From: a virus
Reading direction: 5' to 3' (one strand)
DNA length: 64,000 nucleotides
IMG/VR virus record: IMGVR_UViG_3300023180_000036
Location: 1 to 64,000 of that record
Shown: piece after piece, positions 3,290-46,483 of the stretch
Layout of the letters: the number at the start of each line of letters is the position of its first letter
How positions within the stretch are numbered: position 1 is the first letter of the stretch
Program-made: the position numbers and the translations under genes
The notes under the pieces: generated by a model
The model's input: only the letters and a program-made list of their open reading frames with translations
Databases searched by the model: none
What the model was told of the DNA's origin: nothing

Positions 3290-3720
3290 CTAAAATTTTA
3301 TATACTGGCGGAACTTTTGATCTTTTTCATGCAGGACACGTAAACTTTTTAAGGATGTGTAAGCAGCTTGCAGATACTGTTGTTGTATCACTAAATACTG
3401 ATAAATTTATACAGCAATATAAAGGGTTTGTCCCATTTCATAGCTATGAACAGCGTAGACAGATCTTAGAAGCCTGCATTTATGTTGACAAAGTTATTTC
3501 TAATATATCAGGATCTGATAGTACACAAGCAATAGAAAAAATACAACCACATATTATTGCTATTGGCACTGATTGGGCAAAGAAAGATTACTATGCTCAA
3601 ATGGGATTTTCTCAAGAATGGCTTGATGTTCGTAATATAGTTCTTGTTTACTTACCATATACTGAAAAGATTAGTTCAACAATAATTAAGGAAAAAATTT
3701 CAAAGGCTTATAACCCATGA
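3286..3720 (+). CDS. Cytidylyltransferase (TagD/RfaE-II-like)
   Basis: GGTFDLFHAGH, GTDW and YTEKISST motifs. Confidence 0.85.
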   Translation: MTKILYTGGTFDLFHAGHVNFLRMCKQLADTVVVSLNTDKFIQQYKGFVPFHSYEQRRQILEACIYVDKVISNISGSDSTQAIEKIQPHIIAIGTDWAKKDYYAQMGFSQEWLDVRNIVLVYLPYTEKISSTIIKEKISKAYNP

Positions 3721-4422: not shown

Positions 4423-5565
4423 ATGAAAATTCTAATTTTAGGCGGAGACGGATTTTGCGGATGGCCAACTGCACTTAAACTAAGCGCAGTTGGTCACGAT
4501 GTTCATATTCTTGATAATTTATCTCGTAGAAAGATTGATAAAGATTTAAATAGTTCATCTCTTACAAAAATTGAATCCATTGAAAAAAGACTTGAAACTG
4601 CTAAAAAATTACAAATGGAAATTGGTTTTACTCAAGCTGATGTATGTGATTCTATGGCATTAAAAGATTGTATTGAAAAATTTAGTCCAGATACAATTGT
4701 ACATTTTGCTGAACAAAGAGCTGCACCATATTCTATGATTTCTGATTCAGAAAGAAGATATACAGTAAATAATAATATTACAGCAACACATACATTACTT
4801 AGTACGATTGTGGATGTAAATCCAAATATTCATTTAGTACATTTAGGAACGATGGGTGTGTATGGATATTCAAAGGATTTTGGTGCTATTCCTGAGGGAT
4901 ATTTAGATGTAAAAATAAATTCGACCGAAAAAGATGTTTCGATTTTATATCCAACAAATCCTGGTTCTATATACCACATGACAAAATCTCTTGATCAAAT
5001 TATATTTCAATTTTATAATAAAAACTGGAATCTTAGAATAACAGATTTACATCAAGGAATAGTTTGGGGAACACAAACAGAAGAAACATCTTTGCATCCA
5101 GATTTAGTTAATAGATTTGATTATGATGGTGTTTATGGTACAGTCTTAAATAGATTTATTACTCAAGCTGCTACTAATCATCCTCTTACCGTATACGGTA
5201 TTGGTGGGCAACGTAGAGCATTTATACATATTAATGATACAGTACAATGTATAAAATTATCTATTGAAAATCCTCCCGAGAATACAGATAGAGTTAGAAT
5301 TTTTAATCAGGTTTCTGAAGTAAGGGGCGTTTTAGAACTTGCTAATATATTGAAAGAAAAATATGGAGCTGAAGTTAAACTATATGAAAATCCCAGAAAA
5401 GAACTTCCAGAAAATGAATTAGAAGTTTCTAATGAGGGATTAGTATCTCTTGGATTTGAACCCATTACTCTTTCGGAGAGTTTAATTGATGATTGTAAAT
5501 TTATTGCAGAACAGTTTGGTAATAGAATGAATCCTAATAATATAATGAGTTCTCCAAAATGGTAA
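4423..5565 (+). CDS. sqdB: UDP-sulfoquinovose synthase
   Basis: GGDGFCGWPTAL, HFAEQRAAPYSM, HLGTMGVYG, PGSIYHMTK, TDLHQGIVWG and NRFDYDG are SqdB/SQD1 hallmarks. Confidence 0.92.
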   Translation: MKILILGGDGFCGWPTALKLSAVGHDVHILDNLSRRKIDKDLNSSSLTKIESIEKRLETAKKLQMEIGFTQADVCDSMALKDCIEKFSPDTIVHFAEQRAAPYSMISDSERRYTVNNNITATHTLLSTIVDVNPNIHLVHLGTMGVYGYSKDFGAIPEGYLDVKINSTEKDVSILYPTNPGSIYHMTKSLDQIIFQFYNKNWNLRITDLHQGIVWGTQTEETSLHPDLVNRFDYDGVYGTVLNRFITQAATNHPLTVYGIGGQRRAFIHINDTVQCIKLSIENPPENTDRVRIFNQVSEVRGVLELANILKEKYGAEVKLYENPRKELPENELEVSNEGLVSLGFEPITLSESLIDDCKFIAEQFGNRMNPNNIMSSPKW

Positions 5566-13953: not shown

Positions 13954-14361
13954 ATGTATTACTATATCGACAACCGACCAAAAAATATTTCATTTAAATT
14001 TTTAGATGAGGTATTAGACTTTGCTCAATATTATTTGGGTTTAAATTCAGATTATATAATAAAAATAGTGTTTTTAGGTGATCTTGGAGATACGGTGTGG
14101 GGGTACTGCAACGGTCTTGAAGATGAAGATTATGTGATAGAAGTGAGTTCCAAGTTAAGTAGTGGAGATATAGTAGAAACCATATTTCACGAATTAGTGC
14201 ATGTAAAACAAATTATAGATGGTAGATTAGATGATGATGGAAGAACATGGAAAGGTAAAACTTACGATACAGTAAAAACACCATATAAAGAACTGCCTTG
14301 GGAAATAGAAGCATTTGAACTTCAAAAACTTATGGCAAATGAATTTTTTTCTGCCAAATAA
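13954..14361 (+). CDS. Zincin-like metallopeptidase
   Basis: FHELVH HExxH motif and PWEIEA. Confidence 0.7.
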   Translation: MYYYIDNRPKNISFKFLDEVLDFAQYYLGLNSDYIIKIVFLGDLGDTVWGYCNGLEDEDYVIEVSSKLSSGDIVETIFHELVHVKQIIDGRLDDDGRTWKGKTYDTVKTPYKELPWEIEAFELQKLMANEFFSAK

Positions 14362-14372
14362 CATTTTAGGGG

Positions 14373-14401
14373 TTTACAAACTGGTTAAAATATACTATAT
14401 T
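14373..14401 (+). promoter_or_regulatory. Early promoter
   Basis: ATTTTAGGGGTTTACA-17 nt-TATATT. Confidence 0.7.
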
Positions 14402-14433
14402 AATAGTATAAAGAGAATCGGAAGGAAGAAAAA

Positions 14434-14673
14434 ATGATTGACTTTATCTCAGCAAGCGAAGGTAAAATCCAACTTTGGGAAGATGATATGATTGTAGCAG
14501 AAGCATGCACTGCTAAGTCAATTGCTTACTTTCTTCAAGAACACGGCTTTGATGGAAATGTTTATGCTTCATCTTCAATGGACTTTGCTTCAGAAGAAGG
14601 TTTCGAAACCGACCAATGTGCAAATGATCTTTGGGAAAAATCTGTAAATCTTTACTATGCTGTTCAACACTAA
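14434..14673 (+). CDS. Small acidic early hypothetical protein
   Basis: ORF with strong RBS after an early promoter. Confidence 0.65.
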   Translation: MIDFISASEGKIQLWEDDMIVAEACTAKSIAYFLQEHGFDGNVYASSSMDFASEEGFETDQCANDLWEKSVNLYYAVQH

Positions 14674-14690
14674 AAACGGAAAAAATATAA

Positions 14691-14864
14691 ATGAATAAAC
14701 ATGAAGCAGAATTTATTGCAGAACAGCAACGGCGGATTAATCCTAGTCCAGTAATTAGTAGTCTTGAAGAAATGATTGAAGATGATTATAAAGCTTGGAT
14801 TAAAAGCGGTAGAAGTCCGGTGTTTAACGAATTTCTAAAATCAAAATTTAGAATGGAAAGCTAA
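14691..14864 (+). CDS. 57-aa hypothetical protein
   Basis: ORF MNKHEAEF...RMES* filling the intergenic gap. Confidence 0.5.
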   Translation: MNKHEAEFIAEQQRRINPSPVISSLEEMIEDDYKAWIKSGRSPVFNEFLKSKFRMES

Positions 14865-14869
14865 AATTA

Positions 14870-15091
14870 ATGCTTCAAGACGAGGTATATCACGCTCAAG
14901 TGGCACTTGATATTTTAGAATTTGATTATCACCGACCATTTATAAATGGTAAATGTAATAGGGAAAATATCGAAAATAAAATTGTAGAAGGCATTCTTAA
15001 GAAAGAACTTGAACCCATGAATGATAAAGATGTAAATATCATTTGTGATTTAATTGACATTTTAATTTTTGAACTAGGAGTTAAAGATTAA
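14870..15091 (+). CDS. Hypothetical protein
   Basis: ORF in a co-oriented run. Confidence 0.55.
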   Translation: MLQDEVYHAQVALDILEFDYHRPFINGKCNRENIENKIVEGILKKELEPMNDKDVNIICDLIDILIFELGVKD

Positions 15092-15097
15092 TAAATG

Positions 15098-15174
15098 GGT
15101 TACGTAGCTCAACTGGATAGAGCAACTGACTTCTAATCAGTAGGTTGAGGGTTCGAGTCCTTCCGTGACCGCCA
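15098..15174 (+). tRNA. tRNA-Arg(UCU)
   Basis: Cloverleaf, loop CTTCTAA, GTTCGAG T-loop, encoded CCA. Confidence 0.95.
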
Positions 15175-15178
15175 AAAA

Positions 15179-15255
15179 CGGAGTATAGCACAGCCTGGTA
15201 GTGCGCTTGGTTTGGGACCAAGAGGTCCAAGGTTCGAATCCTTGTACTCCGACCA
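15179..15255 (+). tRNA. tRNA-Pro(UGG)
   Basis: CGGAGTA/TACTCCG acceptor stem, loop TTTGGGA, CCA. Confidence 0.95.
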
Positions 15256-15265
15256 ATACACACTA

Positions 15266-15361
15266 ATAAATTTTGATATACACATGAGAGTAGATGCACC
15301 TGCTTTCCAGTGCATAGGACAAGGACCGAAAGTCACAAGTCATGTGTATATCAAAATTTAT
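15266..15361. ncRNA. Putative structured ncRNA between tRNAs
   Basis: Perfect 22-bp inverted repeat enclosing a GC-richer 52-nt core with two small hairpins. Confidence 0.55.
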
Positions 15362-15369
15362 ATAACAAT

Positions 15370-15444
15370 TCCGGCGTAGCTCAGCGGTAGAGCAGTTGAC
15401 TGTTAATCAATTGGTCGTAGGTTCGATCCCTACCGCCGGAGCCA
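15370..15444 (+). tRNA. tRNA-Asn(GUU)
   Basis: TCCGGCG/CGCCGGA acceptor stem, loop CTGTTAA, CCA. Confidence 0.95.
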
Positions 15445-15458
15445 TAATAGAGGATAAA

Positions 15459-15620
15459 ATGTGGGTTTTATTAGTAATAAGTTATATTTCTGAATATAAT
15501 GATTATAAAGTAACTGAATTTAACAGATATGCAAATCAGAATCAATGTATAATTAATCAAACAGTATTAGAATCAACCTTTAAAGATAATGAAAAAGCAG
15601 TTTGTATAAAGGGTCTGTAG
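15459..15620 (+). CDS. 53-aa hypothetical protein between tRNAs
   Basis: GAGGA RBS, MWVLLV...; the stop lies inside the 5' end of the next tRNA. Confidence 0.5.
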   Translation: MWVLLVISYISEYNDYKVTEFNRYANQNQCIINQTVLESTFKDNEKAVCIKGL

Positions 15621-15686
15621 CATAGCGGTTAATGCTCCCCGCTCATAACGGGTAGATCGTAGGTTCGAATCCTACCAGACCCACCA
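15611..15686 (+). tRNA. tRNA-CAU, probably Ile2 (lysidine) rather than Met
   Basis: GGGTCTG/CAGACCC acceptor stem; CCGCTCATAACGG anticodon arm resembles proteobacterial Ile2; CCA. Confidence 0.9.
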
Positions 15687-15712
15687 ATTAAAAGGTATAA
15701 ATAGTTTAAGAG

Positions 15713-16051
15713 ATGAAAAAAATATCGGTTACGGAAAAAATGGCTACAATACCAAATACAGGAATGCCTTTTGATGTGCATCAAGTTATGCAAGCTTCTA
15801 TGTACAGACCACCTATTGATCAATATCCAAATTCAGAAAATATAAAACCCCCGATAAAAAAAGAACCTATTCGTGTCATAGAACAAATGGATCGTTCTTC
15901 AGTTAAATATGATAGTACAGAAGATTTCTATGCAAAACTAGAAGTAATTAAACAACAAATGAAAAATGCAGAATTTATTAAATATAAAAGAGATGCATCT
16001 GTAGTTAATACAAAGATGGATCAAGGAAAAATAGTAAATATTGTAGCTTAA
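15713..16051 (+). CDS. Hypothetical protein, late promoter TATAAATA at 15696
   Basis: ORF preceded by a T4 late promoter. Confidence 0.6.
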   Translation: MKKISVTEKMATIPNTGMPFDVHQVMQASMYRPPIDQYPNSENIKPPIKKEPIRVIEQMDRSSVKYDSTEDFYAKLEVIKQQMKNAEFIKYKRDASVVNTKMDQGKIVNIVA

Positions 16052-16819
16052 TTACTTATGATACCAATCCAAATCTGGGGCTATAATATCTACAGATTTA
16101 CCTTTAATTGGAGCAAGATTCATTGGAGATTTTTTTACACTCTTTATTGACATCTCAAAGGTAAACTGATAATTACCACCACCTTTAGCTTGTACTCTTG
16201 CTCTATATCCTAGAGTTGCAGCTTGACTAAATCTAGGGACACCTTTAAACTTTAGGGGGTTGGATGGACCGAGTAAATAAAATCCTGTAGTTCCTACATT
16301 TATATAATATGTTTTTTTCTTATTATAATATAACTCAATATTAGATGCAGGTATTTCAGCTTTAACTTCTTCAAATCTTTTTAATTCTTTTGCATAGATA
16401 GCACGTTTATCAAGACCTTCAATTTCAGCTTTTAATTCTGGAGAAGTGGAAAATTTATAAGGTTTGTTTTTCCACTTATCATTTATTGCATCCAATACAC
16501 CATATGTCATAGCTAAATTACGAATAAATATCTTTTCTTCTTCTGTAGGTTTTGGTTCATCAAAATACCATTTTCCATTGGCATATTTAATAACTAAAGA
16601 TCCTCCGGAAGCACCTGGAGAAATTTTTAATTCACAGCCAGACTGTTTACCTGCTCTTTGAATCATAAGATCTGGAATATCGGAACCTGCTCCGGCAGGA
16701 GTAAAATCTTTTGGAACTATACCCATAGGTTTTAAAACTTTTACTGCGTTTACTTCATATTGAAAACCTTGTTGTGCAGTACTAACCATTTCTGTAATGT
16801 ATCCTCTAAAAGTTTGCAT
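16052..16819 (-). CDS. Putative PD-(D/E)xK nuclease with a T4 capsid-targeting-like N-terminus
   Basis: GFQYE...PDLM...CELK motif; N-terminus MQTFRGYITE; minus-strand TATAAATA at 16852-16859. Confidence 0.6.
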   Translation of the reverse strand: MQTFRGYITEMVSTAQQGFQYEVNAVKVLKPMGIVPKDFTPAGAGSDIPDLMIQRAGKQSGCELKISPGASGGSLVIKYANGKWYFDEPKPTEEEKIFIRNLAMTYGVLDAINDKWKNKPYKFSTSPELKAEIEGLDKRAIYAKELKRFEEVKAEIPASNIELYYNKKKTYYINVGTTGFYLLGPSNPLKFKGVPRFSQAATLGYRARVQAKGGGNYQFTFEMSIKSVKKSPMNLAPIKGKSVDIIAPDLDWYHK

Positions 16820-45985: not shown

Positions 45986-46483
45986 ATGGCTGATCTTACT
46001 GAAAATTTTAATTTTCTACAACCTAGCAACTTTAAAGTTGTTATTGACAGAAAAAATTATGGTAATTTGGAATTTTTTGCACAAAGAGTTGTACATCCTG
46101 GGGTAAATGTTACGGCTCCTATAGTACCTTATAGCCGTTTGCAAAGTATTTCTATACCCGGAGATACTCTTGGTGTTGATGATTTAGCATTTGATGTTCT
46201 TGTAGATGAAAATATGACAAGTTATACAGAAGTTTATAATTGGTTAGAAAGTCTTGTTGTGACTCCTACAAGAAGTCGAGATAAAATTTTAGCTGAAGAT
46301 CAAAATGTGGTAGATATAACACTTTCTATATTAAGCAGTCATAATAATGTAATTAAAAAAATTAGATATATAGATTGTGTAGTAACAAATATAGGAACTC
46401 TTTTATTGGAAGCAGCCGCTACTGAAACACCAGTGGTTACATTTCCAGTAAACTTCAAAGTATCATATTTTGAATTAGTATAG
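45986..46483 (+). CDS. gp3: Tail tube terminator/completion protein
   Basis: NFLQPSNF and LVDENMTSYTEVYNWL; late promoter at 45954. Confidence 0.85.
   Translation: MADLTENFNFLQPSNFKVVIDRKNYGNLEFFAQRVVHPGVNVTAPIVPYSRLQSISIPGDTLGVDDLAFDVLVDENMTSYTEVYNWLESLVVTPTRSRDKILAEDQNVVDITLSILSSHNNVIKKIRYIDCVVTNIGTLLLEAAATETPVVTFPVNFKVSYFELV

Follow-up and report, generated by a model that had tools for sequence, protein, structure and literature searches.

The window analysed here, i.e., the first 64,000 nucleotides (nt) of the 82-kb virus record IMGVR_UViG_3300023180_000036 of IMG/VR, carries in its tRNA cluster a 96-nt structured RNA element that lies between tRNA-Pro and tRNA-Asn, at positions 15266-15361. 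The window encodes a T4-type terminase, sheath, portal, major head protein, gp46-like nuclease and DNA polymerase, and its head protein shares 62-67% identity with the head proteins of phage C48C1, the OM43 phage Melnitz and Pelagibacter phage HTVC008M. The element belongs to an uncatalogued family of structured RNAs in uncultured marine T4-like myophages, and the family is both new and real. Its members are roughly 80-100 nt long and share a closing stem (P1) of variable length and sequence (9 to ~27 base pairs, bp), a near-invariant 36-nt segment (GAGUAG-AUGCAC-CURCUU-UCCU-GUGCAU-AGGA), a C-N-A-G strand, a hairpin that covaries and has a loop of the GNRA type, and then a further strand, CAAG.

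A preliminary description of this DNA had drawn attention to a 52-nt core closed by a perfect 22-bp stem, and so it proved: the arm ATAAATTTTGATATACACATGA lies at 15266-15287 on the plus strand, its exact reverse complement lies at 15340-15361, and the core between them spans 15288-15339. When the window was searched with ATAAATTTTGATATACACATGA, allowing up to 3 mismatches, there were 2 matches only, where 100 shuffles gave an expectation of 0. As tRNA-Pro ends at 15255 and tRNA-Asn starts at 15370, the element accounts for 96 of the 114 spacer bases, and the statement that it fills nearly all of the spacer was likewise correct. The predicted folding energy of the 114-nt spacer was -35.1 kcal/mol, compared with -15.5 +/- 2.9 for 200 shuffles, none of which equalled it (z = -6.8). 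The minus strand of the spacer folds about as well (z = -5.2), because the stem in this window is a perfect palindrome without a G-U pair. A chance palindrome can be dismissed based on the fold z score, the shuffle controls and the covariation described below.

Searches of sequence collections produced many homologues. An exact 22-nt piece of the first hairpin of the preliminary description had 0 matches in IMG/VR, because the window holds a private U-to-A change at 15309, where the other 43 of 44 aligned sequences have U. The 23-nt 3' half of the core was present in 6 IMG/VR contigs, which had the whole 52-nt core with two loop differences and a shorter closing stem containing a U-G pair. There the core is situated between ...GCUCCACCA and GGGGC..., inside a permuted transfer-messenger RNA (tmRNA) gene of the alphaproteobacterial type, recognised by the Rfam models RF01849 and RF04321 in 6/6 contigs and by ARAGORN, as a tmRNA, in 2/6. 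Four more sub-patterns of the core, each freeing another part of it, matched 70, 66, 73 and 71 IMG/VR contigs, for the most part one and the same set, and the pattern with 73 also matched 67 metagenome contigs. The total of 141 instances from IMG/VR and the metagenomes, which are not independent because the two collections overlap, reduced to 55 distinct local sequences, and by a hand count of contig-name prefixes the ~36-nt core recurs over about 60 IMG datasets. Among 50,697 cultured phage records there was no match to the 104-nt element, and a 1401-nt query had tRNA-only similarity among the matches listed (40 of 1851 records). Two matches among 185,579 bacterial species genomes were attributed to chance, being G+C-rich, with the rest of the motif absent and no tRNA near, as were 51 loci (L074-L124, including L101 and L110) that matched a pattern with 11 N instead of 9 within coding sequence. 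Searches of the literature on manA RNA, permuted or two-piece phage tmRNA, and the theta ribozyme, which covered main texts, gave no description of the motif, although a motif list or tmRNA table in a supplement might contain it.

The structure of the family was derived from 44 distinct sequences, which were aligned, used to build a model (R1) and realigned with it; the alignment leans towards the nested helices that were supplied, because it was fitted to them. Over the whole structure, 94.5% of cells were paired compared with 86% in shuffles, 0 of 500 shuffles reached any of the five measures, and register slides of 1-3 columns left 20-54% of cells paired. Changes on both sides were found in 14/28 pairs. 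The shuffle control overstates significance because the sequences are related to one another, a bias that affects neither the slide control nor the count of distinct pair types. In P1, both-sided changes occur in 11 of the 13 innermost pairs, and the junction-proximal types are AUGA/UCAU, AUGA/UCGU, ACCA/UGAGU (with a bulge), UUGG/CCAA, UCGG/CCGA, GCG/CGC and ACGA/UCGU. The hairpin near the 3' side (hairpin B) exists in 29 versions, one of its pair positions being GC in 25 sequences, AU in 10, CG in 4, GU in 3 and UG in 2, and its loops are mostly GAAA, GAGA, GGAA, GCAA, or one base longer. Homologues are thus numerous, and covariation is seen in both the closing stem and the GNRA hairpin; homologues and covariation were among the checks that the preliminary description had proposed.

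The same data changed the view of the core. Its first six bases, GAGUAG, pair with CURCUU (the first six bases of what had been drawn as a loop) in 99.6% of cells, forming a helix, alpha, whose middle pair is UG in 25 sequences, UA in 17 and CG in 2, and whose inner pair is GC in 42 and AU in 2. The C-G and A-U versions co-occur in divergent copies of the leader type (GAGCAA with UUGCUU), and the counts for alpha were not produced by fitting, because the covariance model left alpha unmodelled and the region is gap-free. Once alpha is formed, a second helix, beta, is possible between UCCU(G) and (U)AGGA, and its sequence is the same in all members but the window's. P1, alpha, beta and hairpin B make up a four-way junction in which C-N-A-G strands flank hairpin B, and this cloverleaf-like arrangement is the best-supported fold of the family. 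It is also the predicted fold of the window's spacer, in which GAGUAG is paired with CUGCUU. The features of the locus, all on the plus strand, are as follows.

15098..15174, plus strand: tRNA-Arg(tct), the first gene of the cluster (ARAGORN; Rfam tRNA, 69.4 bits)
15179..15255, plus strand: tRNA-Pro(tgg), CCA encoded, upstream neighbour of the element (ARAGORN, Rfam)
15256..15265, plus strand: single-stranded linker of 10 nt, AUACACACUA (from the sequence)
15266..15287, plus strand: 5' strand of the closing stem P1, 22 nt (arm search)
15288..15293, plus strand: GAGUAG, 5' strand of helix alpha, junction 1 of the preliminary description (predicted pairing with 15300-15305)
15294..15299, plus strand: AUGCAC, loop of helix alpha and exact complement of 15310-15315 (the alternative 'hairpin A')
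15300..15305, plus strand: CUGCUU, 3' strand of helix alpha (predicted fold, covariation)
15306..15319, plus strand: helix beta, UCC(A) / GUGCAU / AGGA (invariant in 43/44; A at 15309 in the window)
15320..15323, plus strand: CAAG junction strand, C-N-A-G in the family (alignment)
15324..15334, plus strand: hairpin B, GAC-CGAAA-GUC, variable stem with GNRA-type loops (29 distinct versions)
15335..15339, plus strand: (A)CAAG junction strand preceding the 3' strand of P1 (CAAG in 43/44, CAUG in 1/44)
15340..15361, plus strand: 3' strand of P1 (arm search)
15362..15369, plus strand: linker of 8 nt before tRNA-Asn (equal length in the relative L180)
15370..15444, plus strand: tRNA-Asn(gtt), downstream neighbour (ARAGORN, Rfam)
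15611-15686, plus strand: tRNA-Met(cat) (ARAGORN)

The three-way junction of the preliminary description therefore gave way to the four-way fold, which lies below the fold with hairpin A in energy in 43/44 sequences (by a mean of 3.3 kcal/mol) and contains the alternative helix that covaries; in the unconstrained minimum, alpha is present in 36/44 sequences and hairpin A in 0/44. As for the first hairpin of that description, AUGCAC and GUGCAU can pair in 44/44 sequences, with three wobble-preserving changes only, but its CUG/CAG extension is limited to this window and the hairpin is not the favoured fold. The motifs that had been listed (GAC-CGAAA-GUC, two ACAAG, two GGA) are all present, but the second GGA lies in a variable stem and is not a conserved feature. 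A pseudoknot between the loop and J2 (CUU:AAG plus CC:GG) was dropped, since the sixth J2 position is A, G or U without a change in its partner, and the 0-nt linker would impose an impossible geometry. An H-type pseudoknot joining alpha and hairpin A, judged unlikely, and kissing between the two loops over all 6 bp were both set aside by steric reasoning from the 0-nt and 1-nt linkers. The pyrimidine-rich loop may resemble an anti-Shine-Dalgarno sequence, a likeness on which the argument does not draw.

Alpha and hairpin A are mutually exclusive as nested helices, and the core permits both pairings (44/44), with an energy gap of about 1-6 kcal/mol between the two states. This brings into consideration a two-state switch or aptamer, in which a small molecule or protein bound at the CAAG strands would toggle AUGCAC/GUGCAU against GAGUAG/CURCUU plus UCCU/AGGA and so change the fate of the transcript. 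A switch would suit those copies that lie just before a ribosome-binding site, whose purines, as read from the sequence, could pair with CUUUCCU, and related phages do have a glutamine riboswitch ~50 nt after the tRNA-like domain of their tmRNA. On the other hand, there is nothing obvious to regulate between two tRNAs or in a discarded spacer, no conserved expression platform accompanies the element, and the hairpin-A state is without covariation, its three changes being wobble-preserving only. A switch accordingly seems to us quite improbable.

None of the RNA families compared accounted for the element. Rfam at gathering scores recognised only the four tRNAs in this stretch of the window, and cmscan with Rfam 15 over 15000-15800 at E values up to 10 gave 13 matches, of which 0 were ribozymes and 0 riboswitches; over the element itself these were three microRNA-precursor models and TEG147, at 16-20 bits compared with cut-offs of 56-101. 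The earlier statement that the element matches no recognised ribozyme consensus is borne out by the Rfam models, and no catalogued family matches it at either threshold. The statement that it is neither a tRNA nor a terminator holds as well: ARAGORN found 4 tRNAs and nothing at 15256-15369, the Rfam tRNA model matched the four genes only, and no terminator-like site was found in 14300-16300. The four-way junction differs from a tRNA in its 0-nt linker between P1 and alpha, its 6-nt and 4-nt loops, and the lack of a T-loop. The glutamine riboswitch (RF01739) and the other Rfam riboswitches had no match at E up to 10, with the riboswitch of Melnitz (52.8 bits) serving as positive control. The manA motif (RF01745), an orphan structured RNA from marine T4-like phages (PMC2864571; bioRxiv 10.64898/2026.07.01.735769), had no match over the element, and its best match in the window's own record was 8.1 bits, elsewhere, so that the record is without manA. 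Both are structured RNAs of marine T4-like phages; in relatives that have a manA-like match, however, this ends where P1 begins (e.g., 4701-4873 in L026, with the core pattern at 4894), and the element is a separate module also found without manA. A small open reading frame starting at the AUG of P1 was rejected, as the AUG is absent in stems of the ACCA, UUGG, UCGG, GCGG and ACGA types, the stem variation is compensatory, and the frame is not kept because the combined length of hairpin B and the 3' junction differs by 1-5 nt.

Known self-cleaving ribozymes (hammerhead, twister, twister-sister, pistol, hatchet, hairpin and HDV-like) had no covariance-model match, and no Rfam ribozyme model matched at E up to 10. 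A new self-cleaving class, cutting the polycistronic RNA, would be in keeping with the ribozyme-like conservation of the family, in which junctions and loops are invariant and the peripheral stems vary, and with its varied contexts. It also has a parallel in the HDV-like theta ribozymes, which are reported within 5 nt of phage tRNAs (PMC10879173); theta and the element are alike small conserved structured RNAs abutting phage tRNA genes. Nevertheless, the helices of the element (P1, alpha, beta and hairpin B) are, by inspection, nested, and not the nested double pseudoknot of HDV-like ribozymes, and its core lies 9 to ~27 bp beyond the start of the stem, at a variable distance from the tRNA end, and in a marine rather than a gut setting. 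Because the distance from core to end varies, a cut in the core could not define the end of a neighbouring RNA, and a long stem would keep the cleavage products together. Self-cleavage is thus, in our estimation, very unlikely. The wider notion that the invariant 36-nt core, with its two exclusive pairings in a constant frame, is the active centre of a new class of functional RNA, be it a ribozyme that cleaves or processes itself or a switch triggered by a ligand or protein, and that marine T4-like phages carry it as a cassette between the excised spacers of tRNA, tmRNA and manA-like genes, we consider rather unlikely.

The family as a whole revealed the strand on which the element is read, which the window's palindromic stem could not. 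There were 52 G-U cells and 4 A-C cells in P1, and 69 and 1, respectively, in helix alpha, and in 136 of 141 instances (those with recognised flanks) the orientation was that of the neighbouring RNA genes; the element and its neighbours are read from one strand. These observations bear on the idea of a selfish palindromic insertion without RNA function, resembling a miniature inverted-repeat transposable element. Such an origin might be suspected from the perfect inverted repeats of the window, with no G-U pair, and from the several kinds of insertion site, and the preliminary description had named it, along with a lack of conserved homologues or membership of a known family, as what would undo its reading. 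What was found is a conserved family with one copy per record, arms that vary freely around an invariant core, the excess of G-U over A-C in the stem, co-orientation with the neighbours and a covarying internal hairpin, and a selfish insertion, already disfavoured, is extremely improbable.

The genomic settings of the 55 distinct sequences have a common theme. In 29, the element occupies the spacer of a permuted tmRNA (from ...CCA to GGGG...), recognised on both sides in 24 and on the upstream side only in 5, and in 20 it is directly 3' of a manA-like RNA, being followed by other sequence in 16 and by tRNA-Pro in 4, where the order of the cluster is Arg-Gly-[manA]-[element]-Pro-(Cys)-Asn. Two lie between tRNAs, namely the window copy and L180, in which the stem begins right after the CCA of tRNA-Arg and tRNA-Asn is 8 nt beyond the element. 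Thus, the window copy is not itself the intervening segment of a permuted tmRNA, as 29/55 relatives are. Such segments in circularly permuted (two-piece) tmRNA genes are a subject of PMC11915505 and PMC9004378; compared with the Rfam models RF01849 and RF04321, whose consensus spacer is ~28 nt, the core of the element is a ~50-nt insertion. Overall, the element is 3' of a tmRNA acceptor piece, manA-like RNA or tRNA in 51/55 distinct contexts, its stem starting 0-10 nt past the end of the upstream RNA, and in 35/55 a tRNA or the 5' end of the tmRNA comes after it.

The remaining 4 distinct sequences lie elsewhere and are of two kinds. In the leader type (L126, L127, L144 and L171), a promoter-like site and the element are followed ~15 nt later by AAGGAAAG and a short open reading frame. 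L140 has a stand-alone unit of a promoter-like site, ~90 nt, the element and a U-run. Among the copies that follow a manA-like RNA, L021 has a unit in the order promoter-like site, manA-like RNA, element and terminator-like sequence. A few further observations concern these contigs. L140 also has a permuted tmRNA at 815-1078 (264 nt) with an enlarged spacer that lacks the element, and a manA RNA at 3481-3652 that scores above the Rfam cut-off (63.4 bits) and does not adjoin the element. Just upstream of the leader-type element, L127 (5484-5576) and L126 (1307-1399) have a weak R1 match (22.5 bits) with its own closing stem and a GAG...CUU helix, which may be an A+T-rich, diverged tandem copy. 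At L138:30-107, near a contig end, the 5' flank is of the manA type and the 3' flank of the tmRNA type, either a recombinant or an assembly chimera through the shared core. In L011, L033, L041 and L065, the element is followed by a conserved sequence, CCGAACUGUAACAAGAAAGGA ... GGGUUGCGCCGUAAUACGCACGUUAGGGAC, for which Rfam gave no match at E values up to 1 and which could be a leader or a further structured RNA.

Within a phage, the element is a single-copy feature with a changing address. There is one copy in the window's own 82-kb record, and each of five long records (68-172 kb) has exactly one R1 match and one permuted tmRNA. Of these six records, 2 have the element inside the tmRNA spacer and 4 elsewhere, never both. 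Two of the 3 long records with the element outside the tmRNA have it beside a manA-like match; the tmRNA domains of the three are 215, 263 and 252 nt long compared with 213 model positions, and therefore have a plain spacer or another insert. Indeed, tmRNA spacers free of the element are either plain or hold unrelated inserts (L041, L011 and the window's own record). The permuted alphaproteobacterial-type tmRNA of that record (C1:78794-79033, outside the window; 77.5 bits) has a spacer closed by AUAAACACUUGA/UCAAGUGUUUAU with an unrelated insert of ~64 nt that has no Rfam match. In L011 (12990-13140), the spacer of the permuted tmRNA holds an open frame of ~37 codons, and the same contig has the element after a manA-like RNA. 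Melnitz-like phages have a two-piece tmRNA with a glutamine riboswitch on its 3' side, as reported in PMC9004378; in Melnitz (MZ577097.1) the tmRNA domain at 46013-46345 is 333 nt long compared with 213 model positions, so that its spacer, too, is enlarged, and the riboswitch is at 46398-46446 (52.8 bits), ~50 nt past the tRNA-like domain.

The window copy may bear marks of such a move. The inner part of its P1, ACACAUGA/UCAUGUGU, and the outer AUAAA/UUUAU match the stem of the tmRNA spacer, so to speak a tmRNA-type stem plus about 10 inserted pairs (AUAAA...ACACAUGA), and the CACACUA of its 5' linker is also present in the linker after the manA-like RNA of related contigs. A stem like that of tmRNA and a linker of the manA type are therefore read as probable traces of transfer between sites. 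Since the element has one copy and a changing address, and since tmRNA spacers work without it, it appears to be a gene product in its own right rather than an accessory of one particular RNA.

These findings weigh on the possibility that the element is a helper in cis, a stem-capped module that insulates the folding of the adjacent tRNA-like RNA or offers an entry for endonucleases (RNase III at the stem, RNase E beside it), with the effect that the upstream RNA receives its correct 3' end and the downstream RNA its correct 5' end. Its position directly after a tmRNA acceptor piece, manA-like RNA or tRNA, at 0-10 nt, is what such a helper would have, and the perfect 22-bp duplex of the window would be long enough for RNase III, whose substrates are continuous duplexes of about two helical turns. 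But the related tmRNA genes with plain spacers or unrelated inserts do without it, it changes its host RNA within one phage group while remaining at one copy per record, and an insulating hairpin has no need of a 36-nt invariant core. Nor is the length of the stem maintained: 22 bp in the window and ~27 bp at the longest, it is 12-14 bp in the tmRNA type and L126 and 9 bp in L140. A long duplex is therefore not a family feature, and the suggestion that the element is an RNase III substrate would, judging from these sequences, not hold as an obligatory trait; the other two roles suggested in the preliminary description, a decoy or an antitoxin mimic, are speculative. We regard a helper in cis, including its proposed effect on the two RNA ends, as unlikely.

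The explanation that we favour, tentatively and short of calling it probable, is that the element is a stable small RNA with one copy per record, which tRNA processing would mature and which would act in trans, a passenger RNA in other words. It would be a small-RNA gene that in most phages has no promoter or terminator of its own and is parked in stretches that the cell's tRNA-processing enzymes excise anyway. In the window, the copy would be co-transcribed with the tRNA cluster, the RNase P cut at the 5' end of tRNA-Asn would free its 3' side, and the 3'-end maturation of tRNA-Pro would free its 5' side. The 22-bp stem might then shield the freed remainder from exonucleases, and the freed RNA would act in trans, with the invariant core most likely binding a partner, either protein or RNA. 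Release by tRNA processing, as put forward in the preliminary description, fits the setting of most members (51/55 with such a neighbour upstream and 35/55 downstream) and is plausible for them, but leader-type copies could not be freed in this manner. Given the leader-type and stand-alone copies, tRNA processing would be a common production route and not the only one.

Several points weigh against a passenger RNA acting in trans. The two exclusive pairings of the core are more typical of switches and catalytic RNAs than of a passive binding platform. In 4/55 contexts there is no recognisable tRNA-like neighbour, and one type among these, the leader type ~15 nt before a ribosome-binding site, looks cis-regulatory. 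In addition, contexts were mostly assigned by flank motifs, not by model, with samples confirmed with Rfam or ARAGORN, and the manA-like neighbours score below the Rfam cut-off of 55.2 (34.7-51 bits in 5/6 loci tested and 41-44 bits in 2 long records). RNA runs, with only 8-10% of the words, are neutral here: the three compared with the stretch cover its tRNA parts only and consist of contigs, which carry no information on RNA ends, and they speak neither for nor against transcription.

There is a precedent among the tRNA genes of T4, whose cluster encodes the stable RNAs C and D (also known as species 1 and 2). By analogy, each is a non-tRNA RNA inside a T4-like tRNA cluster, presumably co-transcribed and freed by tRNA processing, and these RNAs, together with the cargo in permuted-tmRNA spacers, may be the closest functional likeness to the element. 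The comparison that had been drawn with C and D is an analogy only: the element has no sequence similarity in the cultured phage records, and its family has further sites in leaders, in the spacers of tmRNAs and downstream of manA-like RNAs.

Annotation usually treats the tRNA clusters and tmRNA genes of phages as aids to translation, and their spacers as disposable. Here, the RNA in the spacer is under stricter conservation than its neighbours and has one copy per record with a changing address, which suggests that it serves a dedicated function in abundant ocean phages of the pelagimyophage and Melnitz neighbourhood. It also points to a general trick of expression, by which RNA genes would be parked where RNase P and 3'-end maturation excise them free of cost. 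For RNA biologists, the family offers a compact motif of ~80 nt that is rich in covariation, and it adds a defined non-coding cargo to the view of phage tmRNA spacers as exchangeable slots. Its conservation, its mobility between spacers that are cut out and its two-state core make it notable for specialists.

One further spacer of the same cluster is occupied: between tRNA-Asn and tRNA-Met, an open frame of 53 codons (15459-15620, plus strand), preceded by a GAGGA ribosome-binding site, fills the available space and runs 10 bases into the 5' end of tRNA-Met.

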